Assembly: GCA_044222185.1 (NCBI GenBank)
Contig: JBGANV010000001.1
Span: 320,001-384,000 of the forward strand
Reading direction: 5' to 3'
DNA length: 64,000 bases
Origin: Planctomycetota bacterium
GTDB taxonomy: Bacteria; Planctomycetota; GCA-002687715; CAIWVZ01
Shown here piece by piece: positions 2,424-63,709 of this stretch (positions are counted from its first letter, which is position 1; each line of letters begins with the position of its first letter). The notes under the pieces were generated by a model, which was not told where the DNA came from, made no database searches, and was given only the letters and a program-made list of their open reading frames with translations. Both the position numbers and the translations under genes were made by a program.

Positions 2424-2424
2424 A

Positions 2425-13568: not shown

Positions 13569-14939
13569 CTACCAGACGAGCCGTTGGAAGTTCGACAGTT
13601 CCACCAGCCCCTGCGCGCTGTAGGCGATCGCCACCCCGTCGAAGATCTGTCCCGCGAGGTACGAGAAGGTTCCGACTGGGAGGATGATCGGTCCGCCGGC
13701 ATACGGGCTGGCCGATGCCGGGTAGTGGTAGATGCTCCCCGGCGTCAACGGTTGCCCGAAGCAGAAAGTGACGAACGGATCTGCGAACGGCAGGCCGAAG
13801 AACTGCCCCGTTCCGAGGCCCGCGGGCGCAGGCGTCGCGGAGACGAGCATCCTCACCGCGGCCGCCGCCGTGGGGACCGACGGGATGTAGAGCGTGAGGT
13901 TCCCGGCGCCGTTTCCACCGGTCGCCGCGATGAAGGACAGTGCCTCCTTCAGCTCCCACGTGTCGCCCATGAGCGTGGTTCCGAAGCCGGTCGTGCCGCC
14001 GAAGAGCACGAGCTTCCCGCGGGCCGCGTCGTAGACCATGCCTTGGTTGCCACGCAGCGGTCCCGGGTTTGGTGCGAGCGTCGTCGACGTCCAGTTCGTT
14101 CCGTTCCACTCCCAGACGAAGTCGTCAGGGGCTCCGAACAGGACGGTGACGTTCCGCGCCGAATCGAAGGCCATGGCGACGCCGTTTCGTGCGGCGGGAA
14201 CAGTGGCCGGGAACCTCTGACTCCAGATCGTGCCGTTGAACTCCCAGGTGGCGGAGCTGACGGTGTTCCCCACGGGTTGATAGCCGCCGAAGTACACGAC
14301 GACACCGCGATTCGAGTCGTAAGCCATCATGCCGTTTTCGGGTGCCGTCGGCGCCGGTGTGCTGGGCGGGCCAACGATTAGCGACCACGTGGATCCGTTC
14401 CAGGTCCAGGTTTGGGTGAACGGCACGCCGACGGCGTCGTTGCCGCCGTACACGACCATGGCTCCGATCGCCGCGTCAAAGGCTGCGGCGTGGTTCAGAC
14501 GCGGCGTCGGTCCGCAGTTGCTGCAGGCCTGCGTCCAGGTGTTGCCGTCCCATTCCCAGGTGTCGTTCGCTGCCGCGCTCGGGCCGAGCTCGCCACCAAA
14601 CAGCACCGTCCGCTTGCGGATCGAGTCGTAGACGAGCGTATGCAGCCGGCGAGGCGGGGGCGTCGGACCCGTCAGGGCTCGTTGGATCCAGTTCGTTCCG
14701 TCCCATTCCCACGTGTCGCCCAATCGATAGGGCGCGCCGAGGATCGTCCCGCCGAACAGCACCGTTCGGTGGCGCGCGGAGTCGTATGCCATGGCGTGGT
14801 GCATTCGAGCTCCGGGCGTCACGAAGGGCGCCCGCAGGTCCCATTGGAGTTGAGCGGTTGCCGTCGTGCCCGGCAGCAGCATCGTGAGAAGCAGATACGA
14901 CGCGAGTATGGATCGGCGACGTGGCGTGGATGTCCTCAT
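13569..14939 (-). CDS. Secreted kelch-like beta-propeller protein with a conserved C-terminal domain
   Basis: AAGGA RBS; signal peptide ending ATAQ; repeats of MAYDS.R...VLFGG...DTWEWDG; ends SNFQRLVW. Confidence 0.85.
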   Translation of the reverse strand: MRTSTPRRRSILASYLLLTMLLPGTTATAQLQWDLRAPFVTPGARMHHAMAYDSARHRTVLFGGTILGAPYRLGDTWEWDGTNWIQRALTGPTPPPRRLHTLVYDSIRKRTVLFGGELGPSAAANDTWEWDGNTWTQACSNCGPTPRLNHAAAFDAAIGAMVVYGGNDAVGVPFTQTWTWNGSTWSLIVGPPSTPAPTAPENGMMAYDSNRGVVVYFGGYQPVGNTVSSATWEFNGTIWSQRFPATVPAARNGVAMAFDSARNVTVLFGAPDDFVWEWNGTNWTSTTLAPNPGPLRGNQGMVYDAARGKLVLFGGTTGFGTTLMGDTWELKEALSFIAATGGNGAGNLTLYIPSVPTAAAAVRMLVSATPAPAGLGTGQFFGLPFADPFVTFCFGQPLTPGSIYHYPASASPYAGGPIILPVGTFSYLAGQIFDGVAIAYSAQGLVELSNFQRLVW

Positions 14940-15069
14940 GGTGTGTCCTTTCCGCAGCGGGGCGGCGCCGTCACCGGAAGTCGGTGGGCTTCCGCCTCGT
15001 CGTCGCACGATGTGCACACACGTCCGAATGTGACGCGCGATCCAGACCGTTTTTCGAAGCTCCGGAGCG

Positions 15070-15714
15070 TCAGTCGTCGCCGAGTTCGTCGAGCACCGAC
15101 CCGGGAAGCCTGGCGCGCAGCTTCGCGAGAGCTCGCCGGTACCGCTTGGTCGCGGAGTTCGGAGCCATGGAGAGCTTGGACGCAACCTCGTGCATCGGCA
15201 GGCCTTCCATGGCCCGGAGCACCACCAGGGCTCGGTCGAGTTCGCCGAGACCCTCGATTGCCTGCGAGACGATCCCTTCGACTTCACGACGGACGACGTC
15301 CCGAACGACCGAGGCCGTGTCGGCGGGCAGCGCCGCAGTCCGTTTCTTGCGGTCGGTTCCAGGCGGCTCCAGAGGAACCTCCAACGCATACACGCGTTCG
15401 CGCAGCTCGTTCTGAAGGCAATAGTGCAGAATCGTGGTCAGGAACTTCACGAACGACGGCGTTACCCGCACATAGAGGCAATCGAATGTGGGAAGTTGCG
15501 GAAGCGCGCGCTCCCATACCTCTTGAACCAGGTCTTCAGCGAGCAAGCGAGTTCGGAGATGCGCAGGAATCCGTCGCCGTGCGACCGCCACGAGCAAGGC
15601 CGTGAACCGTTCGACCAGCTTTCGAAGCGCCGCGGCGTCGCCTCGAAGCGCATTGCGGACGATGACCGACGTCACGCCGGCACCGGGATTGGGCTCGCTG
15701 GCCGAGGTCTCCAT
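15070..15714 (-). CDS. ECF RNA polymerase sigma factor (planctomycete type, kinase-associated)
   Basis: ALRGDAAALRKL, LAEDLVQEVW (region 2); region 4 LVVLRAMEGLPMHEVA...KRYRRALAKLR. Confidence 0.88.
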   Translation of the reverse strand: METSASEPNPGAGVTSVIVRNALRGDAAALRKLVERFTALLVAVARRRIPAHLRTRLLAEDLVQEVWERALPQLPTFDCLYVRVTPSFVKFLTTILHYCLQNELRERVYALEVPLEPPGTDRKKRTAALPADTASVVRDVVRREVEGIVSQAIEGLGELDRALVVLRAMEGLPMHEVASKLSMAPNSATKRYRRALAKLRARLPGSVLDELGDD

Positions 15715-15838
15715 CGCGCCAGCCTATTCGGTTGCCCAGGGGACCCCAACCATTCGTCGACCGGTCGAGGGCTCGCGGAAGCCGTCGCACTCGTTGTATC
15801 CTGACGCGTGCCTCGTGCAGCGCGGGCGTGGCGGAGCG

Positions 15839-18490
15839 ATGACGATGTCGGATGGTGATCGGAATGTCGCCGCGGCCTTGACCGAGTTCTTGAGCCACTT
15901 GCACGCGGACCGGGAAGCAGGGGTCGACCGCCCACTGGCGGAATACCAAACGATGCAGCCCGGCTATGAGCGGGAGATAGCCGCGGAGTTCTCACGGCTC
16001 GGCGGCGGGCCGCGGTCCACGGCCGAGCGGCAACCCTCGGTCAACACGCCGAAGCCGCTATTCGCCGGCCGATACCGGATGGAAAACGAGCTCGGTCGCG
16101 GCGCCCAGGGCGCCGTATCCGCGGCCGAAGACACCGTGCTGAATCGAAAGGTCGCAGTGAAGCTCCTGCGGTCACCAGAGCTCGCCTCGACGGAGGCACT
16201 CAAACGATTCACTCGCGAGGCGCAGACGGCGTCGCGGCTCGACCACCCGGGCATTTGTCCGGTTTACGACAGCGGCGTCGCGGACGGAGTGCCCTTCATC
16301 GTCATGCGATTCATCGACGGTGTCACGCTCGCGCGCGAACTCGAGGCGGACGTGCCTGCGACGACGCGTGCGGAGGTCCGAGCCCGTCTTCTGTTCGTCG
16401 AGAACGTCGCCAGGGGACTCCATTCGGCCCACGAGAAGGGAGTCATTCACCGTGACATCAATCCGCGGAACATCATGGTGACGCCTGACGGAGACCCAGT
16501 GATCCTCGACTTCGGGCTCGCGCGCGAGTCATCCACCAAGGCCGAGTCGATGACATCCGCTGGGCACGTCGTTGGCACCCTGGCGTACATGTCGCCTGAG
16601 CAACTCGGCCTCGATTCGACGAGCCTCGATGGGCGAACCGACGTCTGGTCCTTGGGCGTAACGTTGTACGAGTGTCTCACCGGTGTGCGGCCGTTCTCGG
16701 CGCCGACGCGCGACAGCCTCTTCCGGTCGATCCTCGCCGACGACCCGAAGGACCCGCGTCGACTGAATCGCGCGATCGACCGTGACGTCGCCGTCGTCGT
16801 CCTGACGGCGTTGGAGAAGGAGCGTAATCGCCGCTATCAGACGGCTGCCGACTTCGCCGAGGATCTGCGGCGGGCGATCGATGGGCAACCCGTGCTCGCC
16901 CGCCCGATCGGGCCGTTCGGCCGGCTCGCTCGGTGGTCACGACGAAGTCCCGTGGTCGCGGGATTGACGGCCGCGGTATTCGTCGCGCTGGCGACCGGCC
17001 TCGTCGGCACGACGGTGCAGAAGAACCGCTTTGATGCCACGCTTCAGGACTGGAACCGGCTCGTCGACGTGCGGCGCCTCGAGTCGCTCGCGCGCGAGGC
17101 AGAAGGGGAACTGATCGCTGCATCCCGCAAGAACATCCCCGCCATGAAGGCGTGGCTGGATCGCGCAGGACGACTCGTGACACGGCTGCCGGAATTGGAG
17201 TCCACTCTGGACGAGGCGCGCCAGAGCGGTCGGCGTCGCACCGTGGACGACCGGCTCTACCAGGAGCGTTCGGCGCCGCTCGTGCGGTTGCGCGACGCGC
17301 TGCGGTTCCGCCTCGGGCACGCGAGGGGCGGTGCGGATTCCGCGATGGACGCCGCATCCTTCGGTGCCGAGTTGTCACGCCTCGAACGAGACATCGCGAA
17401 CCTCGAGGTCTGGACGTTCGACGAGGAAAGCGCCCAGCTGCGCTACGACGGGCTCGACCAGTTGGTCAATGACATCCGCGCGCTCGACGGGCCCAAGGAT
17501 CCGGAGCGTCCCACAATTGCCGCCATGCGCGAGCGCCTCGCCGCGTCCGAGCGGCTCGAGGTTCAGTGGGACTCGGGGGCTGCCGCCTGGGAGGTGACGA
17601 CCCGGGCCATCGCCGAATCGTCCTCCTACGGAGGACTGCGTTTGATGCGGCAGGAGCGCCTGGTGCCGATCGGACCCGACCCCCAATCGGGGCTGTTCGA
17701 GTTCGCCGTAGAGGGAACGGGCACCGTGCCACACAGAGATTCCATCACGGAGGAATTGGTGGTGCAGGGCGATGCCGCGATCGTCCTGGTGCTGCTCCCG
17801 GCTGCGACGTTCCGCATGGGGACTCCGGGAGGCGGAGAGAAGGGCGCCGAGCGTCCCCACGACGTGACGCTCACGGCGTTCTTCATGTCGAAGTTCGAGT
17901 TGACCCAAGCCCAGTTCGCAACCCTGCGCGGCGAGGACGCGGGCGTCGTCGCACGGCTGGGTCCGAATGGGCGGCTCCCCGTCGTCGAATTGAATCGCAG
18001 TCAGGCCGACCGCGTCGTGCGCCAAGGAGGCCTGAGGGTCCCGACCGAGGCTCAGTGGGAATACGCATGTCGCGCGGGTTCACCGACGCGCTTCTATTGC
18101 GGAGACGCCGAGCGCAGCCTGGACGGGCACGAGAACGTCGCGGACGCTTCGTTTCCGCTGGCGCTTCAATCCAAGCGAGTCGACTGGGACGACGGCGCGC
18201 CCCTCGCGACGTTCGTAGGTCGGTATCCAGCGAATGGGTTCGGCCTGCACGACATGCATGGCAACGTCACGGAATGGACCTGCGACCCGTATCACGAGGT
18301 GTTGTCCTCGGCGGACCATCGCCCGGGTGACGGCGCCGTGCAGCTGGGCCCATCGAACTACTGCGTCACCCGGGGTGGAAGCTACTACCTCAATCCGGAA
18401 TATTGCCGTTCCGCGATGCGGCATTCACCCAAGGCCGTTCACACCAATCTCACGCTCGGCGTGAGGCCTTCGCGCGGCGTTGAGCCCTAG
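15839..18490 (+). CDS. Hanks-type Ser/Thr kinase with a transmembrane segment and a C-terminal FGE-sulfatase (SUMF1) domain
   Basis: GGAG RBS; VAVK, RFTREA, HRDINPRN, DFGLA, GTLAYMSPEQ, DVWSLG; TM VAGLTAAVFVALATGLVG; FGE motifs PTEAQWEYACRAG, NGFGLHDMHGNVTEW and RGGSY. Confidence 0.92.
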   Translation: MTMSDGDRNVAAALTEFLSHLHADREAGVDRPLAEYQTMQPGYEREIAAEFSRLGGGPRSTAERQPSVNTPKPLFAGRYRMENELGRGAQGAVSAAEDTVLNRKVAVKLLRSPELASTEALKRFTREAQTASRLDHPGICPVYDSGVADGVPFIVMRFIDGVTLARELEADVPATTRAEVRARLLFVENVARGLHSAHEKGVIHRDINPRNIMVTPDGDPVILDFGLARESSTKAESMTSAGHVVGTLAYMSPEQLGLDSTSLDGRTDVWSLGVTLYECLTGVRPFSAPTRDSLFRSILADDPKDPRRLNRAIDRDVAVVVLTALEKERNRRYQTAADFAEDLRRAIDGQPVLARPIGPFGRLARWSRRSPVVAGLTAAVFVALATGLVGTTVQKNRFDATLQDWNRLVDVRRLESLAREAEGELIAASRKNIPAMKAWLDRAGRLVTRLPELESTLDEARQSGRRRTVDDRLYQERSAPLVRLRDALRFRLGHARGGADSAMDAASFGAELSRLERDIANLEVWTFDEESAQLRYDGLDQLVNDIRALDGPKDPERPTIAAMRERLAASERLEVQWDSGAAAWEVTTRAIAESSSYGGLRLMRQERLVPIGPDPQSGLFEFAVEGTGTVPHRDSITEELVVQGDAAIVLVLLPAATFRMGTPGGGEKGAERPHDVTLTAFFMSKFELTQAQFATLRGEDAGVVARLGPNGRLPVVELNRSQADRVVRQGGLRVPTEAQWEYACRAGSPTRFYCGDAERSLDGHENVADASFPLALQSKRVDWDDGAPLATFVGRYPANGFGLHDMHGNVTEWTCDPYHEVLSSADHRPGDGAVQLGPSNYCVTRGGSYYLNPEYCRSAMRHSPKAVHTNLTLGVRPSRGVEP

Positions 18491-18743: not shown

Positions 18744-19196
18744 GACTTTCTCCTCAATCACCCGTTCTTGTTGGGCGCAGTAAGGCTGTTCTTTGGCCCG
18801 GGCGCTCCGCGCCACGCAGTGCGTTCCTGTCGCATGCACTGGCGGACGACTGCGGAGCGGATCATACTCGCGCGCTTCGCGAAAAGGCATGAGGGTCGAC
18901 GACATTCGCTGGTTCGTACCGTCACTCGCGAGGGCGAGCCCGAGCTTGCACCCGGTCGCGACGGCCTATGCGGGAGTGGCCTGCCGCTGCGGCGGGTCGA
19001 CGGCAGCGGCTGCTCGTTAGCGTTAGATCCGAACCCGTGCCTGACTCCGGCGCCCGGTTGGGCCCCATCTCTCGCCGAACACCTCGGTCCTCATTCGGCC
19101 ACCGGGCAACGTGCCCCGGCTTGCCGGACGCGACGTCCCGCCGCGGCGCGGGGGGCGGCACGGGCAACGCCGCCGAGTAGACTCCCGGCCGATTCC

Positions 19197-20681
19197 ATGC
19201 GCATCCCGCGGTTGGTGATCATCGGTGTGGCCATAACCGTCGCGGTCCATCGGGCCGTGACGCAGCCCGTGACGTTCGACGAGGCGTGGAGCTTCGTCGA
19301 GTTCTGCCGAGGCGAGTGGGGACGTACGTTCGCACCGAGTTCGAACAATCACTTGTTGAACACCCTGCTGATGCGTTTGACGACGGGGGCGGTCGGCGCT
19401 TCGGCGTTCACGCTGCGAATACCGACGCTCGTCGCGTGTTGCGTGTCACTGGCATTCGTCTGGCGCTGGACGCGGCGCCTGGCAGGGTTCCCCGGAATCC
19501 TGGCGCTCGCGGCATTCGCCTTCGACCCGATCCTGTCGGACTACTTCGCCCTCGCGCGAGGCTATGGGATCGCGACCGCCATGCTGCTGTGGCTCGCAGA
19601 CGCACTCGGACGCGTCGGGTCGGGATTTTCGGCCAGCTCGACTCCGCGCCGCGCGCTGGTCGAGACCGGGCTCGCTGCGGCGGGATGCGCGTGCGCGTCG
19701 CTGACGTTCGTGCCGTCGGTCGTCGCTGTGATCGCTGCAGCCGTCGTCCTCGCGTGGCGAGCGCGTGATCGCTGGACTGCGGCAGATCTCGGAGCCGTCG
19801 CCGTCTGGGCCGGTGTGCCGGCGCTCGCGGCCGGAGCCGTCCCGCTCTGGTTTGCGCTACGGATCCCACGAGATCAGCTGTACTACGGCGCCGCGACGAT
19901 GGCGGAGTCGGGAACTTCGCTGATGGTGCGCATGCTGGCACGTCCGCGCGGTGAGCCGTGCGGAGCCCTCTCGGATCTCGGCGGTCCGCTCGTCATCACC
20001 GTTGCCATCGCGATCTGTGCGTCCGCGCTGGCGGTTGCCGTCGGCGCTGCGGTCATCGACCTGTGCCGTTCGCGGGAACGGGTGCTCGACGCGACCGAGC
20101 GGAGCGGAATCATCGTCGGTCTCGGAGCCGGGTTCGCCGTGGCCGCGACCTTCGGGTCGTCAGCGCTCGCGTCACTCCCGTATCCGAGCGATCGAACGGG
20201 CCTGCACCTCATCGTTCTGACGGTGCTCGGTGTCGGCTCGGCGTGCGCCAGGTCCGTCGGGTCGGAGCGGTCCATCCGACGCCTCGCGGCGGCGGCGATC
20301 CGCGCCGGCGTCGTCGTGTTCTCGTTTGCGTCGTATTCGATCGGTCCGTTCTCCGGGTGGGAGATCGACACACGATGCGGCGATGGGCTCCGATTCCTCG
20401 AGTCGCAGTGGCAGCCGGGCACGCCGCCCGTTCGCGTCCTCGCAGCACCCGAGGTCTGGGGGCCCTGCCTCGAGTTCGAGCGGGTGACGCGCCGGTTGGA
20501 TTGGCTGGCGCCCGTCGATCGGACGGCACGGCTGCCGATCTACGACTACCTCGTACTGACCCCGCGCTACGTCGCCATCGCCTGGATCCGCGAACTCGTC
20601 GAGCCCGTCTGGCAGACTCCGGACGGATCGGTCGTCATCGTTCGGGTCGACAAGAAGAAGCTCGGGGCCGAAACGAGATGA
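19197..20681 (+). CDS. Polytopic membrane protein, GT-C/PMT-like glycosyltransferase
   Basis: TFDEAWSF, NNHLLNT, LRIPTL and ARGYG motifs; multiple TM segments. Confidence 0.7.
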   Translation: MRIPRLVIIGVAITVAVHRAVTQPVTFDEAWSFVEFCRGEWGRTFAPSSNNHLLNTLLMRLTTGAVGASAFTLRIPTLVACCVSLAFVWRWTRRLAGFPGILALAAFAFDPILSDYFALARGYGIATAMLLWLADALGRVGSGFSASSTPRRALVETGLAAAGCACASLTFVPSVVAVIAAAVVLAWRARDRWTAADLGAVAVWAGVPALAAGAVPLWFALRIPRDQLYYGAATMAESGTSLMVRMLARPRGEPCGALSDLGGPLVITVAIAICASALAVAVGAAVIDLCRSRERVLDATERSGIIVGLGAGFAVAATFGSSALASLPYPSDRTGLHLIVLTVLGVGSACARSVGSERSIRRLAAAAIRAGVVVFSFASYSIGPFSGWEIDTRCGDGLRFLESQWQPGTPPVRVLAAPEVWGPCLEFERVTRRLDWLAPVDRTARLPIYDYLVLTPRYVAIAWIRELVEPVWQTPDGSVVIVRVDKKKLGAETR

Positions 20682-20847
20682 GGTCCTCTGGCACAGGTCA
20701 TTCGGCGCGAATCGAGACGGCCAGGCGGCGCGGTGTTCCGCGGATGATGCCGCGCGGTCCGCGTCGCCATGGGGGCGTCATCCAACTCTCTTCTTCGCGA
20801 CGTTGCGCGACCCGATCCGCCATGAACCGGTCGAGGGCGTAGCCGCG

Positions 20848-21594
20848 ATGTCCCCGCCGATGGCCGAGGATCTCACGGCGCCGCGCGACGCGCCGGATGA
20901 CCCGCGATGGTCGATGCGCGCGTCCACGCTCACCGTCCTTGCCGCGACCGTCCTCCTTCTTGGCGCGGCGCCGTTGGCACCGGAGCGATGGGACATCGCG
21001 GAGCCGCTCGTCCTGGGCGGCGCCGCGGTGTTCGCGCTCGCATTGGCGAGTCGACTCGTTCAGATGATCTGGCTGCGCGCGTTCGGGGCGGCGCTGATGC
21101 TGGCATGGGCGATCGGGGAGGTCGTCGGGTCCGTGTTCGTTCCCGGAACGATCTTCGGGTGTTTTCAGCCCTGCCTCTGGTTGGTGGCGGTCGTCGCGGG
21201 CGGGTTGGCCGGACTGCGCGTGAGCCTCGAGCGTGCGGGGAATGGGATTTCCGCACAGGAGTCGCGGGTTCGCGGATTCGTGTTCTCACTGCCCGTGATC
21301 CTGCTGCTTGGGTCCGGCGTCGCGCGTGACGTCGCGACGACCGACGCCCAGGCCTGGTGCGATCGCGCGATCGTTGCCGCCGACACGTGGGCTGCAAGCC
21401 ACGGCGGCTCCTATCCGTGCCGACTCGAGGACCTGGGAATCGCCAACGACCGCCGACCCGACCTCATGGGCTCCGACCCTTCGTACGGCTCGGACGGCGA
21501 GGGCTACATCGTCGCGTTCCGCTGTGGTGATCGTCGGTCGATGCAGTACCGGAGTGACGTTCGACGCTGGCTCTCGGTGAACTCCGGCCTCTGA
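20848..21594 (+). CDS. Hypothetical membrane protein
   Basis: About five hydrophobic segments and a soluble C-terminus (GSYPCRLEDL); start uncertain. Confidence 0.55.
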   Translation: MSPPMAEDLTAPRDAPDDPRWSMRASTLTVLAATVLLLGAAPLAPERWDIAEPLVLGGAAVFALALASRLVQMIWLRAFGAALMLAWAIGEVVGSVFVPGTIFGCFQPCLWLVAVVAGGLAGLRVSLERAGNGISAQESRVRGFVFSLPVILLLGSGVARDVATTDAQAWCDRAIVAADTWAASHGGSYPCRLEDLGIANDRRPDLMGSDPSYGSDGEGYIVAFRCGDRRSMQYRSDVRRWLSVNSGL

Positions 21595-21829
21595 CTCCGT
21601 CGCCTGCCGCTGCACACACAGGGCGGCCGCCAAAAAAAAACCAAGAGCGAGGGGCGCGGCGCCCGCGTGGCCCAACGGGTCACGTCGAGTCATGTCTTCA
21701 TCGAGATCGAGTTGCGGCGGTCGATGCCGTCCGTCGCCGACGCCGCAGGTTCGCCCGACAAGCCGGCGCGGTCGCAGCCGAGACGGACGTCCTTTGGCAC
21801 ATCCGCGCGGTGTATGCGAAACTCGGCCC

Positions 21830-25420: not shown

Positions 25421-27115
25421 ATGTTCACCATCATGAGACTCGAACACACGTTCATCGCGGTCGTCACCATCGTCTACGCCGCCGTCGCTCAGCAGTTGCC
25501 GCGGCTCCAGCACATCGAGTTCAACGCGGGGGTACCGTCGTCGTTCGGAACGCGCGTGGCGACGGTCGGCGACCTGGATCACGACGGCTTCGAGGACTAC
25601 GCCGTGGGCTCTCCAGACGAGACGCTGGGCAATCCCTCCGTTCCCCAATACCTCGGCGTCGTCCGCGTCTATTCGGGCGCGACGGGCGCCATCCTCCACA
25701 CGCTTTCGGGCACGCTGCCGTTCGATCGTTTCGGTTGGTCCGTCGGCGGCGGTGGTGACGTCGATGCCGACGGGACGCCCGACGTGATCGTCGGGCTCCC
25801 GCTGGGCGCAAACACGTCGACGACCGGCAACGTGAAGGTGTTCTCGGGGAGCAGCGGTCTCTCGATCCGCACCTACGTTCTTCCGACCCTCTACGGTTAT
25901 CGCGTCGCCAACGCGGGCGACATCGACGGCGACGGCCGCGCGGACGTCATGACCTCGAGTGGGCTGTTCGCGCTTCCGAGCGCGTCGACCCTCACGCCGG
26001 TGCTCGTGCTGTCCGGCGCAACGGGCCTGGTGATCGCCAGCTACACCGGAATCGCCGCGGGCGTGAGCACGCCTTACGACTCGTGGGGAATTTCGCTCGC
26101 TGGTGGGCGCGATCTGAATGGCGACGGGCGGGACGACGTCCTCATCGGATTCGCATCCCAGGGCGGCCTCGGCAACCAGCACGGGGGAGTCGTGGCTTGC
26201 TCGGGTCTGACGGGCGGTGTCATCCAGTCGTACGGCGGTGCACCCGTGTTCAGCTTCCTCGGAGAGTCCGTCGTGTTCATGCCGGACATCGACGGGGACG
26301 GCCGACCCGACGTGGTCGCTGGAGGGACGGGAAACGGGAGCGTGAGCGTTCCTGGGACCGTGCGGGCCTACTCGGGGCTGGGCGGAGCGCTCCTCTTCAG
26401 CATCACGAGCCCGGTGCTGGCCGACTCGTTCGGCGGCGCACTCGCAGGCGGGCGCGACCTGGACGGCGATGGCGTCGCGGACTTCGTCACGAGCACCCCG
26501 GGACTCAATCCGTCGGGCATTCAGCCTCCAGCGGGCTCCGCGCTCGGGGTCGTCCGCGCCTACTCGGGCGCGACAGGTGCGCTGATCGGGCTCGTCGCAG
26601 GGCGCGCCCCTGGCGCGAACTACGGCGGAGCACTGGCGATGCTCGCAGACACGAACGGCGACGGATTCGACGAGGTCGTCGTCGGCGCCGGACAGGACGA
26701 CACGATCTTCGGAACGGACGCCGGGAGCGTCGACGTCATCGAGTTTGCGGGCGCCCTCGGGTTCGGTGTTGGGAACGGCACCCTCCAGCTCGGAGTGATT
26801 CACGGGCCCTTCGGGGCGAACTGGGTCGGTGCCCTGCGTGCGTCCGGGGCGGGTCCGGGTGCGGCCGGGTTCATCGCGGCCGATCTGGCTCCGGCGAACA
26901 CGACGATCGCCAACCCGCCGATTCCCCTCTACCTCGCGGTGACGCCGGCACTGCTGCTCCAGCCGATCACGTTCGACGGGAGCGGCGCGTGGTCGACACC
27001 CGTGCTCCTGCGCCAACCGGCCGTCGCGGGCCTCGTCGCCTACGCGCAGGCGTTCGAGGTCAGCGGTCCGACGTTCGTCGCGTCCGGTGGGATGCAGCTG
27101 CTGTTCAGCAACTAG
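25421..27115 (+). CDS. Secreted FG-GAP/integrin-alpha repeat beta-propeller with a conserved C-terminal domain
   Basis: Seven GD(L/V/I)DGDG-type repeats (GDLDHDGFED, GDVDADGTPD, DLNGDGRDD and others); signal peptide; ends AGLVAYAQA...ASGGMQLLFSN. Confidence 0.9.
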   Translation: MFTIMRLEHTFIAVVTIVYAAVAQQLPRLQHIEFNAGVPSSFGTRVATVGDLDHDGFEDYAVGSPDETLGNPSVPQYLGVVRVYSGATGAILHTLSGTLPFDRFGWSVGGGGDVDADGTPDVIVGLPLGANTSTTGNVKVFSGSSGLSIRTYVLPTLYGYRVANAGDIDGDGRADVMTSSGLFALPSASTLTPVLVLSGATGLVIASYTGIAAGVSTPYDSWGISLAGGRDLNGDGRDDVLIGFASQGGLGNQHGGVVACSGLTGGVIQSYGGAPVFSFLGESVVFMPDIDGDGRPDVVAGGTGNGSVSVPGTVRAYSGLGGALLFSITSPVLADSFGGALAGGRDLDGDGVADFVTSTPGLNPSGIQPPAGSALGVVRAYSGATGALIGLVAGRAPGANYGGALAMLADTNGDGFDEVVVGAGQDDTIFGTDAGSVDVIEFAGALGFGVGNGTLQLGVIHGPFGANWVGALRASGAGPGAAGFIAADLAPANTTIANPPIPLYLAVTPALLLQPITFDGSGAWSTPVLLRQPAVAGLVAYAQAFEVSGPTFVASGGMQLLFSN

Positions 27116-27647: not shown

Positions 27648-28223
27648 ATGCGCCGATTCGACCTGCGGATCGTCATGTTCGTCACGGTGTTCGCTCTCGT
27701 CGCGCCCTACGCGGGGAGCACGATCCTCATCGTCAAGAACCTCGGCGAACTCGCCCGCGAGGCGGATGCGATCGTCGTCGGTCGCGTCACGGGCGCTGAG
27801 TCGCGCTGGGGGAACGGGCAGTCGATCATCTGGACGCATCACTCCATGCGGGTGGAGGAGACGTGGAAGGGTGACCTCACCGGCGAGATCGTCGTCAGTG
27901 AGATCGGCGGGACGGTGGGAACCAAGTCCCAGTTTCTTTGCGGCGCTCCGTCGTACAGGGCCGGCGACCACGTCCTCTTGTTCCTCAAGCGCGACGCCGG
28001 TGGGCTTCTGCGCACGTACGGCTGGCTGCAGGGGCGGTTCGACCTCGCCGCCGATTCCGCGCACCTCGGCGCCTGGCTCGTGACGCCGTCGTTCAGGCAC
28101 GTGATCGACGGCTTCGTTCCGGCGAGCGAGGTACGTGATGGCGGATCCGTCGACCTGGATCGCTTCCGCAACCAGGTGATCGACCTGGTGCATTCGCCGG
28201 CCCGTCGTGGGGAGGGACGTTGA
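27648..28223 (+). CDS. Secreted OB-fold-like protein coupled to the matrixin gene
   Basis: Signal peptide; LGELAREADAIVVGRV...VEETWKG...GGTVG...GDHVLLFL; TGATG overlap with the next gene. Confidence 0.7.
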   Translation: MRRFDLRIVMFVTVFALVAPYAGSTILIVKNLGELAREADAIVVGRVTGAESRWGNGQSIIWTHHSMRVEETWKGDLTGEIVVSEIGGTVGTKSQFLCGAPSYRAGDHVLLFLKRDAGGLLRTYGWLQGRFDLAADSAHLGAWLVTPSFRHVIDGFVPASEVRDGGSVDLDRFRNQVIDLVHSPARRGEGR

Positions 28224-29926
28224 TGCGCCGCCTGGTCCTCGGTTCGATCTTGGTCGTCGTCTTCATGGTCATCGCGCCGGCTCACGTTCCCACGTTGGTC
28301 GTCCCCCCGTCTGGCGGCGGGACGATCACCTGGCCGCAGAACGCAACGATCAACTACAAGCTGCATTCGAGCGTTCCGGGCGGGTTCGTGGCTGCGGTCG
28401 ACGCCTCGTTCCACGCCATCGACGTGGAGACGCCACTCACGTTCGTCAACGGTGGTGCCACGGCGATCGCGACCGTCGGGACGGATGGCACCAACGTCAT
28501 CACGTTCGCGAACAACACGACGAACCTGCAGGCCGTCGGCGGTGCACTCGCCGTCACGCTCGTGAGCTTCTCGAGCGGGACCATCAGCGAGGCGGACATC
28601 GTGTTCAACCCGGCGACGACGTTCTCGACCAACCTGGCGGCGAGCACCTTCGACGTGCAATCGGTTGGGACGCACGAAGCGGGGCATTTCGTCGGCCTCG
28701 ACCACAGCCCGATGCTCGACGCGACGATGTACCCCACGACGTCGGCGGCCACGTCGATCCGCCGCACGCTCGCCGCCGATGACCGCTCGGGACTGCGCCT
28801 CCTCTATCCAGGGAACACGGCCGCGACGGTGGGCACGGTCACCGGCACGATCCAACGCGCGCCGGGCCAGCTCGTGGGCGGCGCGCACCTCGTCCTGCGG
28901 GACGTCGTCACGGGGCGCAGCATCGACGGCGGAGTCAGCCGGGGGACGGGCGCGTTCACCATCAGCGCCGTCCCTCCGAGCGACTATCACCTCTACGTGG
29001 AGCCGTTGGACACGCCGTTCCAGCCCGCCAACCTGGGCTCGTCGTATTGGGGAACGGTGACCTTCGACACGTCGTTCAGGACGGCGGTTCTCGGCGGGAC
29101 CGCGAATCCGACCGTCCTCGCCGTGCGCCCGGGGGTGACGACGAACGTGGGCACGTTCACCGTCGCGGGGCCGGCGCCCACGTTGAATCTCGTGGCGGTC
29201 GCCGCGCTCGCGACCGCGAACGGCGGCTTCTCCTTCTCGACCGGCCAGCCGGTCGGGTTGTCGGCTCCGTACTCGCAATGGCTCGTCGTCGTCGGAAACT
29301 CGGTCAACACGCTCGCCGATTCGGCGTTCAACTTTCAGAGCCCCTTCATCTCGTTCTCGGGCCCGAGCACGGGGAGTGGCACGCTCGGTGGCGGTCTTGC
29401 GTTCAAGATCTTCCCGGTCGCGGTCGCGTCCAACGCGCCGTCCGGTGGATACCTTCTGCGCGTCGTCGACCCGAACACGTCCGAGATGGCCATCGCGCCC
29501 GGGCTCGTCGAGGTGTTGCCGACGGCGACGCCGCAGGCCTGGGCAGCGACGTACGGACCGAATTGCCCGGGCGCCGCTGGCGCCACGCTGCTGACCATCC
29601 CGTCGCCACCGAGCCTGGGTAACGGGCAGTTCCGTTTCGCGCTGAGCAACACGTCCGCCGTCGAAACCGCCTTCTTCTTCTTCTCCACGAACGCCGACTA
29701 CGTCCTCGTGCTGCCCTCCTGCAACGCGAGCGTCGACTTGAGCCGGCTGATCATCCCGTTCCCTGGATTCTCGTTGCCGTGCGGAGCGGGCAGCACGACG
29801 CTGTTCATGCCCCTTCCGAACACGCCTGCGCTCGCGGGCCTGGATGTCTACGCGCAGTGCGCGGTGATCGTGAACGCCACGGCTGCCACGCGGGTGACGA
29901 ACGCCGCCCAGCTGCACTTCGAATAG
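28223..29926 (+). CDS. Secreted matrixin (M10-like) metzincin protease with a carboxypeptidase-regulatory-like domain and a conserved C-terminal domain
   Basis: HEAGHFVGLDHS zinc motif; Met-turn ATMYP; EADIVFN; ends PALAGLDVYAQC...VTNAAQLHFE. Confidence 0.9.
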   Translation: MRRLVLGSILVVVFMVIAPAHVPTLVVPPSGGGTITWPQNATINYKLHSSVPGGFVAAVDASFHAIDVETPLTFVNGGATAIATVGTDGTNVITFANNTTNLQAVGGALAVTLVSFSSGTISEADIVFNPATTFSTNLAASTFDVQSVGTHEAGHFVGLDHSPMLDATMYPTTSAATSIRRTLAADDRSGLRLLYPGNTAATVGTVTGTIQRAPGQLVGGAHLVLRDVVTGRSIDGGVSRGTGAFTISAVPPSDYHLYVEPLDTPFQPANLGSSYWGTVTFDTSFRTAVLGGTANPTVLAVRPGVTTNVGTFTVAGPAPTLNLVAVAALATANGGFSFSTGQPVGLSAPYSQWLVVVGNSVNTLADSAFNFQSPFISFSGPSTGSGTLGGGLAFKIFPVAVASNAPSGGYLLRVVDPNTSEMAIAPGLVEVLPTATPQAWAATYGPNCPGAAGATLLTIPSPPSLGNGQFRFALSNTSAVETAFFFFSTNADYVLVLPSCNASVDLSRLIIPFPGFSLPCGAGSTTLFMPLPNTPALAGLDVYAQCAVIVNATAATRVTNAAQLHFE

Positions 29927-31003: not shown

Positions 31004-33700
31004 TCACGGCCCGACGTGGAGGACGATTCCGTTCGTGACCGAGACTCCCGCCGGGGCCGTGGGGTCGGCGATCGCGCCCTGGAACGTCGCCACGAGCGGC
31101 GACGTGATCGCGGGAACGAGCCAGCTCCACGGTGCCGGCGGCACCTGAAGCAGTGCCTCGTTGCCTACACTCGACGCGAGCCAGAGCGTGGGGCTCCCGG
31201 GACCCGGAGGCGGCATGCAGAACTGGCCGATGGGCGATGGCGTCAGCATCGATGGCGTTGGCTCGCCGAGCATCACGAACACCGCCATGTCGGCGTTTCC
31301 CACCGGCGGGAGCATCCGGATCGTGAATGGAACGCCGAGGGGCTCGAAGGCAGAGCGTGTGGAGATCCAGCCGAGCTGCGAACTCATCGAAAGCACCGGA
31401 ATCGGGACGCCGACGGATTCACCGACCCGACTGTCGAGGCACGACCGCGAGATGAAGACGCCTGCCACCGGTGGCTCGCCGCCAACCGAACAAACGCCGC
31501 TCATCACGATGTCTCGGCCGCCGCCGTCGTCGTAGGTCGCGGTGACCACTCCGTCTCCGATCGGCGTGTTCGCGACCACATCCCACGCCGTGCCGTTCCA
31601 GCGCGTGATCCCCGACCCCGCGATGTCGAGGTGCAGTCGTGGCCCGCTTCCGGAGTCGTAGGCGAACAGCCGCCCAGGGCCTGGGGCGCCGCCAGCGAGT
31701 GGCTCCCAACCGGCAGTCCCGAGTCGCGCCACGTTGTTCAGGCCGCCCATCACGAACGATCCGCTGACGAACACGTGAGGCCCCGTCCCATCGTCGAGAA
31801 CTTCGATGGACTCCGCCGTTCCGTAGCAGAGGTAGGGGATGTTCTCGTAGTCGCAGTCCGCGAACCCGCCGAGCGTCGTCAACGCGGTGCCACTCCATTG
31901 CAACGCGATGCCTTGTCTCGAGTAGGGCGTCCACGCGATGTCGTACGTTGCGAAGAGCGCTGGCCCGACAGAATCCGTCCTTTGGATCAGCGACGTGAAC
32001 CGGGCCTGGCTTTGCCAGATGGGAACTGACGCGAGCGCGTCCCACGCAGTCCCATTCCAGCGGGCAAGCCCCGAGCCGCCGACGGTCACGAACGTGCCCA
32101 CGCCATGGAGCGCAGGTCCGGTCCCCGGATCGAACGCGACGATGCGATCGAGGTAGGCGTCACCGGGCGTGCCGGCGGGTGCCCAGGTTCCCCCGTCGAG
32201 GGACCACAGCTGCGATTCGACGACGGCGTAATAGCTCGTCGATCCGCCGATCGTCACGGCGGCGACGTCGGACGGAGGGGCCGCCAAACCAGCGCCGAGC
32301 GCTGTCCACGCGGAGCCGTTCCACCGCGCGACGAACCGGCAGGGTGTCGTTCCGATCCAGACGAAGTCACCAGTGACGAGAAGCTCCCGGCCCGTGGCTG
32401 CCGCGACTTCTCGAACGAGGAGTCTCGGGTTGAGCCCGATCGCTTCCCCCGGCCCGCCCTGCAACCCGCCGCTCATCAAGTTCCACGACCCGCCCTCCCA
32501 GCTCGCGATGCTCGAAGCAGCCATCGCTCCAACACGCGAGAAACGCCCACCGATACACAGTGACGACGTGCCGCCGGTCGAAATCGCCGCAAGCGCGTCG
32601 ACCTCCGGGAATTTGATCGAGTCGGTGCCGATGCTGCCGCCGATCGCCGTCCAGACGGTGCCGTTCCACCGCGCGATTGCCACCGCATCGGAAGTGCCGG
32701 CCAGCGCGATTTGGCCACCTGCGTAGAGCACCGGTCCCGACCCACCGTCGAAACCCGCCAATGCCGCGACGTAGGTCATCCCCTGGCCCGCACCGGTCGT
32801 GACCGAATTGGCGAAGCCGGTTCCCACGGCCGACCAACTCGCGCCATCCCATCGCGCGATCCCATTCACGGATAGGCTCCCGGCAGTTCGGAAGTAGCCA
32901 CCGGCGAAGAGCGCGCCGCCGGCACTGGCCAGAGCCTTCACGTGGTCAACGGTGCCCGTGAGGCCTGACCCGAGCGCGCCCCACTGACCGTTGCGCCACC
33001 GCGCGACGTTGGCGACCGCCAGCCCACCCGCCAGCTGGAAATTCCCGCCGACGAAGAGCCCGGGACCGCCGCCGTCGTCGTGGACGGCGAGCGACATGGC
33101 GGAGTAGCCCGCGAGTCCGGGCGCGAGGATCGGACCGACGCCGGTCCCGAGAGAGGCCCACGAACTGCCGTCCCACCGCGCGACGTACCCGACGGTCTGG
33201 CTGTCGATCTGGGCGAATTCACCTGCGACGTGGAGTCGCGGACCCGTGCCGTCGTCGAACACCGCCATGGCGTTGATCGCACCGCTGAACGCCCCTGGCA
33301 ACGCCGACCAGCTGGTGCCGTTCCAACGCATCAGGTGATGCGTGCCGGTCAACGGGCCCGTCCCGGCGAAGTCGCCGCCAGCGTAGAGCGCGGGGCCCGT
33401 CCCGTCGTCGAACGTGGCGAGCGCGCGCACCGTCCCGTCGATTGGGGCCGCGGTGCCGGACCATGCCGTTCCGTTCCACCGCGCGACGGCTCCGGTCGCG
33501 ATGCTCATGCCCGATGCATGCGTGACGGCTCCCGCCGCGAACAACGCGGGGCCGGAGCCATCGTCGAATACCGCGATCGCTCGCACCTGGGCCTGAAGCC
33601 CGAGCGGTGGTGAGATTCGCGACCAGGTGGGCGGAACCTGCGCGATCGCGACGCTCAGGGCGGATGAGGCTGCAAGGGCGGTCCAAAGGCTCATGCGCAT
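31004..33700 (-). CDS. Large secreted beta-propeller repeat protein (DDGxGPAL / WNGxxW repeats) with a conserved C-terminal domain
   Basis: AAGGAGG RBS; signal peptide ending AIAQ; more than ten repeats of the FDDGSGPALFAAG...ARWNGTAW type; ends TFQGAIADP...VTNGIVLHVGP. Confidence 0.88.
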   Translation of the reverse strand: MRMSLWTALAASSALSVAIAQVPPTWSRISPPLGLQAQVRAIAVFDDGSGPALFAAGAVTHASGMSIATGAVARWNGTAWSGTAAPIDGTVRALATFDDGTGPALYAGGDFAGTGPLTGTHHLMRWNGTSWSALPGAFSGAINAMAVFDDGTGPRLHVAGEFAQIDSQTVGYVARWDGSSWASLGTGVGPILAPGLAGYSAMSLAVHDDGGGPGLFVGGNFQLAGGLAVANVARWRNGQWGALGSGLTGTVDHVKALASAGGALFAGGYFRTAGSLSVNGIARWDGASWSAVGTGFANSVTTGAGQGMTYVAALAGFDGGSGPVLYAGGQIALAGTSDAVAIARWNGTVWTAIGGSIGTDSIKFPEVDALAAISTGGTSSLCIGGRFSRVGAMAASSIASWEGGSWNLMSGGLQGGPGEAIGLNPRLLVREVAAATGRELLVTGDFVWIGTTPCRFVARWNGSAWTALGAGLAAPPSDVAAVTIGGSTSYYAVVESQLWSLDGGTWAPAGTPGDAYLDRIVAFDPGTGPALHGVGTFVTVGGSGLARWNGTAWDALASVPIWQSQARFTSLIQRTDSVGPALFATYDIAWTPYSRQGIALQWSGTALTTLGGFADCDYENIPYLCYGTAESIEVLDDGTGPHVFVSGSFVMGGLNNVARLGTAGWEPLAGGAPGPGRLFAYDSGSGPRLHLDIAGSGITRWNGTAWDVVANTPIGDGVVTATYDDGGGRDIVMSGVCSVGGEPPVAGVFISRSCLDSRVGESVGVPIPVLSMSSQLGWISTRSAFEPLGVPFTIRMLPPVGNADMAVFVMLGEPTPSMLTPSPIGQFCMPPPGPGSPTLWLASSVGNEALLQVPPAPWSWLVPAITSPLVATFQGAIADPTAPAGVSVTNGIVLHVGP

Positions 33701-34128: not shown

Positions 34129-35214
34129 ATGCGGATCGCTCGCCTGTGCGTGTTGTTCATCGTCGTGGCGGGGCTGGCACCCTCCCAGACGGTTCCAGAG
34201 ATTCTCTACTACCGCTTCAACGAAGGCTCGGGGACGACGGCCGTGAACTCGGCATTTCCTGGCGCCGGCCTTCCTACGGGGACTCTCTACGGTTCAGCCG
34301 CGTTCGGCACCGGCCGATTCGGCACCGGCCTGTCCTGCACGGGACAGACGGGCAGCCTCCAGGGAATGACTACGGGCTACACGCTCGGAATGCAGGGACA
34401 GTCCTGGTCGCTCGAGTTCTGGCTCAACCCGAACGCGAGCACGACCTCGATCAAATACATGTTCGGCGTTCCCGTCGGGCTTGCTCTCCGCTGCTTCAAC
34501 GGCGCCGTGCCCGGCAACGGCAACATCACGTTCACGGGCAGCGGTCTCGGCACGGTCAACGCCGTCGGTGCTGCGCCGGCCGCGGGAGTCTGGGTGCACG
34601 TCGCGTTCGTGTTCGACAACTCGACGGCGCCGCCCACCGTCACTCCTTACGTGAACGGCGTGGGACAGTCGCCGGTCGCGCAAACGGGCGCCCTCACCCT
34701 GAACACTGGAACGCTGAACCTCGGAAGCCAGCTGACCGGTTCGGCTGGTCTCGATGGAACGATCGACGAGTTCCGGCTGTGGGGGCACGCACTCACGCCA
34801 GCCGAGATCGTCGCTCGCTACAACATCGAGGTCTATCCGTTCAACATCCTGTCGGCGCAGACGAGCGGAGCGGGGACGGGCGACCTGAATCTCGCCATGA
34901 CCTCGGTCTCTCCGGGCGCGACCGAGGGATACCTCCTCTTGACCACATCCACCGCGGGAGCCGTCGGGACGGGTCCGCTCATGGGCATCGTGCCCGACGC
35001 GTTGACCTGGAGCATCTTCTCGCAACCGCTCGTCGCGGGCAGCCCGCTCCACTATCCGGTCGGAGTCCCGGGCGTGTTCCCGGATCAACCCTTCACGGTC
35101 CCGGCCGGAACACTGGGATTCCTCGCAGGGCAGGTGTGGGACGTCGTCGGCATCGTGCTCGCGCCCGGCTTCGCGTACCTGGGCGCATCGAACGTCCAGC
35201 GCCTCGCCTGGTGA
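34129..35214 (+). CDS. Secreted LamG/concanavalin-like jelly-roll protein with a conserved C-terminal domain
   Basis: YYRFNEGSGT, WSLEFWLNP, WVHVAFVFD, YVNG, GTIDEFRLW..ALT; ends SNVQRLAW. Confidence 0.88.
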   Translation: MRIARLCVLFIVVAGLAPSQTVPEILYYRFNEGSGTTAVNSAFPGAGLPTGTLYGSAAFGTGRFGTGLSCTGQTGSLQGMTTGYTLGMQGQSWSLEFWLNPNASTTSIKYMFGVPVGLALRCFNGAVPGNGNITFTGSGLGTVNAVGAAPAAGVWVHVAFVFDNSTAPPTVTPYVNGVGQSPVAQTGALTLNTGTLNLGSQLTGSAGLDGTIDEFRLWGHALTPAEIVARYNIEVYPFNILSAQTSGAGTGDLNLAMTSVSPGATEGYLLLTTSTAGAVGTGPLMGIVPDALTWSIFSQPLVAGSPLHYPVGVPGVFPDQPFTVPAGTLGFLAGQVWDVVGIVLAPGFAYLGASNVQRLAW

Positions 35215-43504: not shown

Positions 43505-43759
43505 CTACGACGCCGCGTCGTCGTGGGACTCGGCTTCTGCGGCAGCGGCTGCGGCGGCCGCCAGCTCCTGTTCGCGCCGGGCGATCTCGATCTTCTTCTT
43601 CGCGCGGCGGTAGCTGCCCCACACCAGGTAGACGAACAGCGCCGAGCCGAGGACGAGGGCCACGATCCGGACCGTGTCCGGCTGGGCCCGTTCGAGCAAC
43701 AGCGCACCGATCATCACGGCGAGGATGATCGGCACGAGGAGTGATTCGAGTCGTTGCAT
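43505..43759 (-). CDS. Small two-TM membrane protein
   Basis: GGAG RBS; two hydrophobic helices then RRAKKK; fits the gap between flanking genes. Confidence 0.65.
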   Translation of the reverse strand: MQRLESLLVPIILAVMIGALLLERAQPDTVRIVALVLGSALFVYLVWGSYRRAKKKIEIARREQELAAAAAAAAEAESHDDAAS

Positions 43760-43862
43760 GAGGTGGACTCCATCGCTTCCGGACGGAGGCGTGGATGGTA
43801 CCATCGCGGCGATTTTGGCCCGACGGCGACCGAACGTGCGGCCGCGCGTGCCCGACCCGACC

Positions 43863-47829
<3,967 letters not shown>

Positions 47830-59102: not shown

Positions 59103-59106
<4 letters not shown>

Positions 59107-59612
59107 AATACATCGTTCGCATCGGCGGGAAGGACACCCCGGTCAGCGTGGACCTTCGTGACGACGGCCGGTTCGACGTCACGCTCGACGGCGAGTCGAT
59201 GCAGGTCGACATGCGGAGGGCCGGAGGCGACTCGTTGTTCTCGTTGCTCATCGGTGCCCGATCGTGCGAGGTCTCGGCGACGACGAACGACGGAATGTGG
59301 CGACTCGCGCTCCGCGGTGCGACCGTCGACGCTGCCGTCGAATCCGAGCAGGAGCGGAACGCCCGCCTCATCCAGGTGGGCACCGGACCTTCACGTCCGG
59401 CGATCATCAAGGCCAACATGCCCGGCTTCGTCTCGAAGATCCTGGTCAAGCCCGGCGACGCCGTGGCGAAGGGCACGGCCCTCCTCATCATCGAGGCGAT
59501 GAAGATGGAGAACGAGATCCGCGCGGACTCCGCCGGAAGCGTGGCCGAGGTGCTCGTCTCAGAGCGCCAGACTGTGAACAACGGCGACTCGCTCGTGCGC
59601 ATCGCGCACTGA
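59103..59612 (+). CDS. Biotin carboxyl carrier subunit
   Basis: EAMKMENE biotinylation motif; ATGA coupling. Confidence 0.93.
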
Positions 59613-59625
59613 AATCGGAGTATCC

Positions 59626-60243: not shown

Positions 60244-60261
60244 GGACCCGGTAGAGAAACC

Positions 60262-61671: not shown

Positions 61672-61674
61672 AGC

Positions 61675-62283: not shown

Positions 62284-62288
62284 GCGAA

Positions 62289-62317
62289 CGACCCGCGCTC
62301 CATCCGAGCGCGGGTCG
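62289..62317. terminator. Perfect 12-bp inverted repeat between convergent genes (putative bidirectional terminator)
   Basis: CGACCCGCGCTC-CATCC-GAGCGCGGGTCG. Confidence 0.6.
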
Positions 62318-62329
62318 GAGCGATGACGC

Positions 62330-63709
62330 TCAGAACCCGAGGACGAGGACGCCCGGATTCGCGAGGAACAGGTAGCCAGTCACGTCGTCCGCGGCCTGGA
62401 CGAGGACCGAACCGCCCTCGATGCCGTTGAACTGCGCCGGCAGCGTGAACCCGACCTGGAAGTAGCGGTTCGCGTCCGCCACGCCCGTCGTCAGGAACGC
62501 CGCCGCAGCCGGGTTCCCCGACATGAACTGGAGGGACGGCGCGTAGATCGACAGGCCGAACTCCGTGACGAGCGCGAGTCCGACCGGGTACCCGGCCTGC
62601 GCCGCCAGGTGCGACATGACGAGGACGCCGCCCGGCTGCGTCGAACCGAGCCAGCGGAACGTCGCCGGGGTGTCGACGATCGGGCCGTAGATGCCGCCGC
62701 CGGTCGTGAAGGCCGGCGAACCATTGCTGCCGACCGGTCCTCCGGCCTGGTTCTGCCCGGCCGGGCCAGGGATGAACGGCATGGGCTTCTTGTTCAGCAC
62801 CGTCGAGAAACCCGAGATGTCCGCAGCGTTGCCGCCGTTGCCCGAGGGGATGGTGGTCGAGGAACCGACACCGCGCCGGCCGCCCTGCCCACCGACCACG
62901 TAGCTCGTGTTCGTCGGGTCATCGACGATGGAGACGATGCTGCCGTTCAGCGCTCGGATGGCCGCGCCGCCTGCCGGCGTCGACGCGCTGGTCGTCCACG
63001 GACCACCGCCCGATCCACCGATGAGCTTGGGCCGCGCGAGGCACACGACCGACTGATCGAGGATCAGCATGGCGTCACCCGCGACCGGGAAGAAGTTCGG
63101 TTCGCCGTAGAGGTCGCCGCCCGCGATGTCCAGGTCGTTGCCCTGGATCCGCGAGTTGTAGACCGACATGCCGGGAATCGGCGGCAGTCCGCCCGGTTGG
63201 TGACGGATGCGCATCTCCTCGATGATGACGTTGGCGCAGGCTGCGATGACGGCACCGCCGTTGGCGAGGACCATGCGGTCGAGGACGAGGTTTCCGACGC
63301 AACCCGCAGCGCCAAAGCACAGGTCGCTCGCGGTGCCCGGACGGAGGATGACGAGACCGGAGAGAACTGCGGTCTGTCCGGCCGGCACGTTCTGGACGCT
63401 CACCTGGCCGTGAATGGCCGCGAGTGACGGATTGCTGGGAACGATCATCGGGTACTGGGTTGCGTTCCAGCCCACGATCGTGATTCCCGACGTCACGGCA
63501 ACGTTTTCGAAGTAGTTGCCGGCGCGGACGAGGATGCGGTCCCCCGGTGACGCTGCGGCGACCGCAGCGGAGATGGTCGTGAAATTGGTGCCGGGTCCGT
63601 TGTTGGCATCGACGATCCAGATCGCTGCCGGACACGACACGGCGAGAGCCACCGAGAGGAAGAAAACGATCCCACCGCGACGGGCAGGTTCGAACGTACG
63701 CATCTGCAT
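62330..63709 (-). CDS. Secreted pectin-lyase-like/beta-helix, Gly-rich protein with a conserved C-terminal domain
   Basis: Signal peptide; WIVDANNGPGTNFTTISAAVAAASPGDRILVRAGNY; GGxGG segments; ends GSVLVQAADD...LANPGVLVLGF; alternative start 63703. Confidence 0.8.
   Translation of the reverse strand: MQMRTFEPARRGGIVFFLSVALAVSCPAAIWIVDANNGPGTNFTTISAAVAAASPGDRILVRAGNYFENVAVTSGITIVGWNATQYPMIVPSNPSLAAIHGQVSVQNVPAGQTAVLSGLVILRPGTASDLCFGAAGCVGNLVLDRMVLANGGAVIAACANVIIEEMRIRHQPGGLPPIPGMSVYNSRIQGNDLDIAGGDLYGEPNFFPVAGDAMLILDQSVVCLARPKLIGGSGGGPWTTSASTPAGGAAIRALNGSIVSIVDDPTNTSYVVGGQGGRRGVGSSTTIPSGNGGNAADISGFSTVLNKKPMPFIPGPAGQNQAGGPVGSNGSPAFTTGGGIYGPIVDTPATFRWLGSTQPGGVLVMSHLAAQAGYPVGLALVTEFGLSIYAPSLQFMSGNPAAAAFLTTGVADANRYFQVGFTLPAQFNGIEGGSVLVQAADDVTGYLFLANPGVLVLGF

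Follow-up and report, generated by a model that had tools for sequence, protein, structure and literature searches.

The question raised by a 64,000-nucleotide stretch of the genome of a Planctomycetota bacterium (assembly GCA_044222185.1, contig JBGANV010000001.1, positions 320,001 to 384,000; hereafter the window, whose own numbering is used below) is whether six putatively exported proteins with dissimilar N-terminal regions end in a common domain and, if so, what that domain might do. The initial annotation had assigned all six a shared C-terminal tail, proposed to be a lineage-specific sorting or secretion domain. The data presented here show that four of the tails belong to two families, designated A and B, which are real, very abundant and uncatalogued domains. 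Translation confirmed the six open reading frames (ORFs) and the endings attributed to them, and the N-termini, judged by eye for basic residues followed by a hydrophobic stretch and small residues, resemble signal peptides in every case. The diversity of the N-terminal folds was confirmed by Pfam for five proteins (Kelch, FG-GAP, Peptidase_M10, Rax2-like propeller and Laminin_G_3), while the sixth, described as a beta-helix protein, returned no Pfam match at E≤1. No Pfam family extends over any of the six tails, and NCBIfam adds nothing for these regions.

Family A is represented in the window by a Kelch-repeat protein (13569..14939, minus strand; tail about 13572-13946) and a LamG (Laminin_G_3) protein (34129..35214, plus strand; tail 34837-35211). 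When the last 150 residues were compared by BLASTP, these two tails aligned with 38.5% identity over 122 amino acids (E 3e-14, composition-corrected), while the other pairs gave, at most, weak, position-consistent hints. Family B comprises the tails of an FG-GAP propeller protein (25421..27115, plus strand; tail about 26663-27112) and a matrixin (Peptidase_M10; 28223..29926, plus strand; tail 29474-29923). Searches within the assembly (7.08 Mb in 16 contigs, ∼68% G+C, 93.8% complete) covered all 45,997 stop-to-stop ORFs. By phmmer the FG-GAP tail matched three other C-terminal tails, the best at 4.4e-8, and the matrixin tail likewise detected other C-terminal tails (7.3e-7). In a leave-out test, in which the profiles were rebuilt without the members from the window and then run against all of the ORFs, the family A profile recovered the LamG tail at 1.1e-17 and the Kelch tail at 9.9e-11 (aligned residues 510-616 of the 622-residue open frame), and the family B profile recovered the matrixin tail at 7.3e-18 and the FG-GAP tail at 4.8e-7. 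Unrestricted profile iteration strayed into FG-GAP repeats, and family size was instead defined by length-limited iteration at a domain E≤1e-5. Seeded from the Kelch tail, family A (∼120 amino acids) contains 54 ORFs in this genome, rising to 80 at E≤1e-3, with every match ending 0-8 residues before the stop codon. Family B (∼135 amino acids), seeded from the matrixin tail, contains 183 ORFs; searches seeded from the FG-GAP and matrixin tails converged on largely one set, with 104 ORFs in common. None of the 54 A and 183 B ORFs carries both domains.

The two remaining tails did not reach even E≤10 when the leave-out profiles were run against the genome. The tail of the Rax2-like propeller protein (31004..33700, minus strand; tail 31007-31456; Pfam assignment) has a domain E-value of 2.4e-5 in a search of the six sequences, and hhalign aligns it with only the last 29-31 columns of family B (70% probability, E 4e-5; 47% with a wider profile), a region that corresponds to the strand bearing the conserved glutamine and the final strand. 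On this sequence evidence the propeller tail is possibly a divergent member of family B. The tail of the sixth protein (62330..63709, minus strand; tail 62333-62782) lies in neither family. It has no paralogue in the genome, and hhalign comparisons with A and B were not significant (0.1% to 7%), even when the tail was represented by a four-sequence alignment. Orthologues of this protein were found in 3 of 30 related genomes, all three from one sister genus. A single family uniting the six tails is rejected on the results of BLASTP, the leave-out profiles and hhalign. The loose consensus motif offered in the initial annotation mixes two families, since the tails split into A and B without significant relation; statistical support for a shared tail extends to the Kelch/LamG and FG-GAP/matrixin pairs, with the propeller a possible fifth protein and the sixth unsupported.

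Profile-profile comparison of A with B was not significant (hhalign 0.3%, 10.5% and 7.9%). The low-scoring alignments repeatedly pair the same C-terminal segments of the two families. Blind clustering of other C-terminal 130-residue stretches revealed a third group of tails, subfamily C, with 12 seeds that have unrelated N-terminal parts (for example C11:92495-94852 and C1:1362330-1366682, outside the window). Subfamily C merges with B on iteration (hhalign 97.5%) and forms the strongest link to A, though still a weak one (12.4% across 80 columns). From these alignments A and B may possibly constitute a single superfamily. The other C-terminal clusters of the genome were trivial, consisting of the ends of histidine-kinase ATPase domains and glycosyltransferases.

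Neither family corresponds to a catalogued domain. When 22 family A and 42 family B tails were compared one by one with Pfam and NCBIfam at E≤1, nothing consistent emerged, and the only recurrent matches came from upstream FG-GAP repeats that extended into 3 of the 42 B tails. Profile searches of PDB sequences gave no match for A or B. These searches bear out the view that the tails match no known sorting motif or catalogued domain. The listings and abstract openings returned by a literature search do not describe any planctomycete domain of this kind. AlphaFold2, supplied with in-genome alignments, produced confident models of family A (pLDDT 94.6) and family B (pLDDT 88.5, with the sandwich spanning residues ∼32-150), both all-β except for short 3-10 turns, and the prediction of a β-sandwich is therefore upheld at the level of the models. 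Foldseek found no match in the PDB at E≤1e-3 with either model. The same solved domains (9l9p_S, 1egj_A, 2yn3_A, 3vmn_A and 9y5y_B) match both models over their full length, suggesting that A and B share a sandwich class that is, in general terms, immunoglobulin (Ig)-like, fibronectin type III (Fn3)-like or macroglobulin (MG)-like. Among the structural matches listed there is no chain from a type IX secretion system (T9SS) C-terminal domain (CTD), a dockerin or an S-layer homology (SLH) module, although absence from the list does not exclude one. The best-conserved positions in family B comprise three glycines, three prolines, one leucine and one glutamine, the last present in 87% of copies. 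A cysteine pair occurs in 51 of the 183 copies and is half-present in a further 30.

The two families together account for 237 carrier ORFs in 7.08 Mb. Each family has as many domains as ORFs, one per protein, while PKD and TIG, which are Ig-like spacer domains, sit internally in the same carrier proteins. When 60 carriers were scanned over their whole length, 44 contained at least one Pfam domain; these domains are all of extracellular type and very diverse, and include LamG, PKD, beta-helix, Rax2-like propellers, astacin, FG-GAP, LTD, C-type lectin, sortilin/BNR, TIG, GEVED, DUF4394, HYR, Kelch, CHRD, DUF7948 and subtilase. The same partner, be it Kelch, LamG, FG-GAP, beta-helix or the Rax2-like propeller, can be found with either A or B. 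Export was assessed with a crude, home-made signal-peptide heuristic, which replaced a looser version that was uninformative (380 of 600 controls positive). Signal-peptide-like N-termini were detected in 42 of 54 A and 116 of 183 B carriers, compared with 251 of 800 control ORFs. The hundreds of profile matches, their mostly C-terminal position and the enrichment of signal-peptide-like N-termini are what the initial annotation had anticipated for a genuine tail family.

The strictly C-terminal position that had been proposed holds for family A (54 of 54) but not for family B. In the latter the domain is located at the C-terminus of the mature protein in 159 of 183 ORFs (87%), directly after the signal peptide in 20 and elsewhere in four, two of which are probably also N-terminal if an apparently non-coding upstream frame is discounted. 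The N-terminal copies, which precede Kelch-like or other domains, are scattered on the family tree: a FastTree reconstruction, probably of poor resolution, requires 12 parsimony changes to account for the 20 copies. These copies correct the picture of an exclusively C-terminal tag and weaken the analogy with C-terminal export signals. Two tandem gene arrays outside the window encode proteins of this type: at C15:351521-359000 the B domain directly follows the signal peptide and is succeeded by Kelch-like repeats, and at C6:644344-648691 the domain that comes next is conserved but has no family assignment. The last residue of the protein is aromatic in 23 of 54 A carriers and 47 of the 159 with a C-terminal B domain, compared with 6.4% of 2,041 control ORFs.

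Both families have a sharply bounded distribution. Among 30 relatives, all 22 same-order genomes contain family B, with at least 19-101 matches each, and the same 22 contain family A; of the eight genomes from other orders, two contain B and none contains A. In an even sample of the phylum (151 genomes at ≥85% completeness) B occurs in 32; taxonomic families carry it as a whole or lack it altogether, and carriers almost always have multiple copies. In a library of 1.84 billion representative public proteins the B profile matched 32,300 proteins at E≤1e-3, of which 11,178 reached E≤1e-10; of the best 150 matches, 149 end within five residues of the C-terminus. The nearest named relatives of the tailed proteins, and of a housekeeping protein encoded in the window, derive from metagenome-assembled genomes labelled Planctomycetota bacterium or Planctomycetes bacterium. 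A search with the whole LamG protein returned, in other phyla, only relatives of its LamG domain and was uninformative on the tail.

The closest known systems resemble A and B in different respects. The T9SS type A CTD (Por_Secre_tail) of Bacteroidota is likewise a small Ig-like β-sandwich that ends many unrelated signal-peptide proteins, is highly divergent, is confined to particular lineages and is carried by tens to hundreds of proteins in each genome. The Ig-like fold of the A and B models agrees with this comparison, but it is a generic feature. In contrast to the planctomycete tails of ∼120-135 amino acids, the T9SS models span 72-75 positions, the CTD has no sequence match to the tails or to the genome, and family B occurs at the N-terminus as well. 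Neither PF18962 nor TIGR04183 matched the 22 A and 42 B tails or the six whole proteins at E≤1. In the 93.8%-complete genome PF18962, TIGR04183 and TIGR04189 (SprA) gave no match, although the same searches were silent in 14 of 14 control genomes and other T9SS components were not searched. PEP-CTERM, LPXTG, GlyGly-CTERM and MYXO-CTERM signals are also common C-terminal features of diverse exported proteins within one lineage, but these consist of a short motif, a transmembrane helix and a basic tail, whereas the A and B tails are predicted to be folded sandwiches of 120-135 residues in which the last strand reaches the stop codon, with no hydrophobic helix or Arg/Lys tail. PEP-CTERM (PF07589) was not found in the genome by a search that was also silent in the control, nor was exosortase (PF09721), for which the control was positive in one genome.

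Dockerin and SLH modules occur once per protein, mostly at the C-terminus and sometimes at the N-terminus, on dozens to hundreds of unrelated exported proteins, which they tether by binding to a common scaffold or wall polymer. The A and B carriers show the same pattern of use, but the folds are unrelated: type I/II dockerin is a small calcium-binding helical module and the A and B models are all-β. The hosts differ too, as SLH modules are found on Gram-positive surface proteins and the bacterium considered here is a diderm planctomycete. There was no Pfam match to dockerin in the tails. The MG domains of α2-macroglobulin and complement C3/C5, together with Fn3, are also among the closest known systems, but by sequence the tails are not members of the MG or Fn3 Pfam families.

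From the observed size, position, fold class, partners and taxonomic spread of the families, our preferred reading, which is held tentatively, is that the tails are uncatalogued terminal modules that serve localization by binding or anchoring. According to this proposal A and B, together with subfamily C, would be single-copy, terminal Ig/Fn3-like modules that have been shuffled onto very diverse Sec-exported proteins and may bind a common component of the cell envelope. The shared destination could be the surface of the outer membrane, a layer or fibre at the cell surface, or the enlarged periplasm. That one module is present per protein, at a chain end, on diverse exported partners, in two interchangeable families with hundreds of copies and an all-or-none distribution among lineages, argues for a tag with a shared purpose rather than a spacer. 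As B is found at the N-terminus as well as at the C-terminus of the mature chain, binding or anchoring is favoured over a T9SS-like export signal, and usage would be closer to that of SLH or dockerin modules than to that of a cleaved C-terminal signal.

Several observations weigh against the binding proposal. Neither a binding partner nor a receptor or machinery came to light; the remaining window genes have housekeeping functions (amidohydrolases, glycosyltransferases, a kinase, DNA-repair and replication genes, sigma-54 and propionyl-CoA metabolism), and genome-wide the excess among neighbours is modest and confined to TPR Ser/Thr kinases (43 of 105 within 4 kb against 27.3 expected, uncorrected). 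The co-occurring barrel, peptidase or other machinery that the initial annotation had looked to was thus detected neither among the window genes nor through neighbour enrichment. Extracytoplasmic function (ECF) sigma factors near tail genes were not significantly enriched (26 of 81 against 21.0 expected), and a ‘150-aa family' among the neighbours looks like antisense ORFs of kinase genes. The tail genes themselves cluster barely above random, with 157 of 237 having another member within 10 kb, where simulation gave 128 on average and 154 at most. The B sequences show no evident conserved ligand site, as the positions that are conserved, mostly glycine and proline with one glutamine, are likely structural. 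The evidence for export derives from a heuristic with a 31% background, and the 87% C-terminal bias, the proximity of the domain to the stop codon and the aromatic last residue would also fit a signal that operates through a free C-terminus.

These last features lead to a rival explanation in which the tails are export or sorting signals akin to the T9SS CTD. A dedicated outer-membrane translocon or sortase would recognize the folded domain, carry the cargo onto the outer membrane or across it, and perhaps cleave the tail. In favour of this model is the C-terminal position of the domain (159 of 183 B, 54 of 54 A and 149 of the best 150 public representatives), which ends a few residues from the stop codon, often with an aromatic last residue. 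An Ig-like sandwich of ∼120 amino acids, highly divergent with few fixed residues and borne by hundreds of cargo proteins per genome, also speaks for it, and the all-or-none, multi-copy spread among families of the phylum is as expected for a system-dependent tag. The 20 of 183 B copies at the N-terminus, which follow the signal peptide and precede other domains, argue against such a signal, as they imply that neither a free C-terminus nor a C-terminal position is required. In addition, PF18962 and TIGR04183 match neither the tails nor the genome, SprA was not detected (by genome searches whose controls were silent), and no conserved barrel or peptidase neighbour was seen. An export signal is rather unlikely in our view and ranks second, level with the possibility that the tails have no common role in localization. 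The latter would regard them as generic Ig-like modules (stabilizing caps, adhesion domains or carbohydrate-binding modules) that spread by duplication, with their terminal position reflecting gene history. Part of the tail count is plain paralogy, since many members share partner types such as FG-GAP, Rax2-like, LamG and beta-helix, and the failure to find machinery is also in keeping with this explanation. Generic modules would not be expected, however, to occur once per protein, almost never internally and never in tandem, unlike PKD and TIG in the same proteins, nor to be combined with at least 17 Pfam partner families in which the same partner may carry A or B. The consensus also lacks the conserved aromatic platform usual for carbohydrate-binding modules, and the scale (237 ORFs in 7.08 Mb and 32,300 public clusters) does not favour a role-free module.

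Chance resemblance, arising from Gly/Pro/Ala-rich composition in a genome of 68% G+C, is scarcely credible as a general account. It would accommodate the sixth tail, which has no significant match, the failure of the propeller tail in the genome-wide search and the lack of a significant relation between A and B. For four of the six tails it is ruled out by BLASTP, public homologues and the leave-out profiles: these tails pass the leave-out searches at 5e-7 to 7e-18 against 45,997 ORFs, the Kelch-LamG similarity survives composition correction (E 3e-14), both fold models are confident and thousands of homologues exist elsewhere.

The localization modules that we tentatively favour could form part of a larger scheme, one more doubtful than any considered above except chance. 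In this scheme A, B and subfamily C would be the address tags of an undiscovered protein-placement system in certain planctomycete lineages, a functional counterpart of the T9SS or of cohesin-dockerin display that would serve several hundred cargo proteins per cell, with different classes of tag directing proteins to different destinations. If such a system exists, its machinery could be traced through genes whose distribution follows the sharply defined presence or absence of the tag (32 of 151 genomes sampled). To our knowledge, little is understood of the way in which Planctomycetota localize their very large complements of exported proteins. Both families lack a name, a solved structure and a known role, despite the 237 ORFs in this genome and, for B, 32,300 representative clusters. 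The pair of A and B profiles would annotate tens of thousands of ‘hypothetical' tails, would mark the exported or surface proteome of uncultured planctomycete lineages and, through phylogenetic profiling, makes the search for a partner or machinery tractable.

Several further loci of the window, all on the plus strand, are of note. A 1,227-residue protein at 43674-47357 has MscS channel domains at its C-terminal end as its only recognized parts, while no Pfam family matches its first ∼1,000 residues. The region 18768-25047, immediately upstream of the FG-GAP gene, encodes two ORFs that lack Pfam domains (18768-20681 and 20803-21594), together with a HEAT-repeat protein and one containing three CarboxypepD_reg domains; profile searches detected family A or B tails in none of these. 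At 15602-18490 a Ser/Thr protein kinase is joined to an FGE-sulfatase-type domain. Beside the Kelch gene, at 9747-13299, is a trio reminiscent of envelope glycosylation, comprising a PMT_2/Glyco_transf_22 membrane glycosyltransferase, a GT2 enzyme and a protein with a LAB_N (lipid A biosynthesis N-terminal) domain. The first part of the window (89-9302) is occupied by six adjacent genes that each encode amidohydrolase domains (PF01979 or PF07969), one of which is a double-length form of 945 amino acids.

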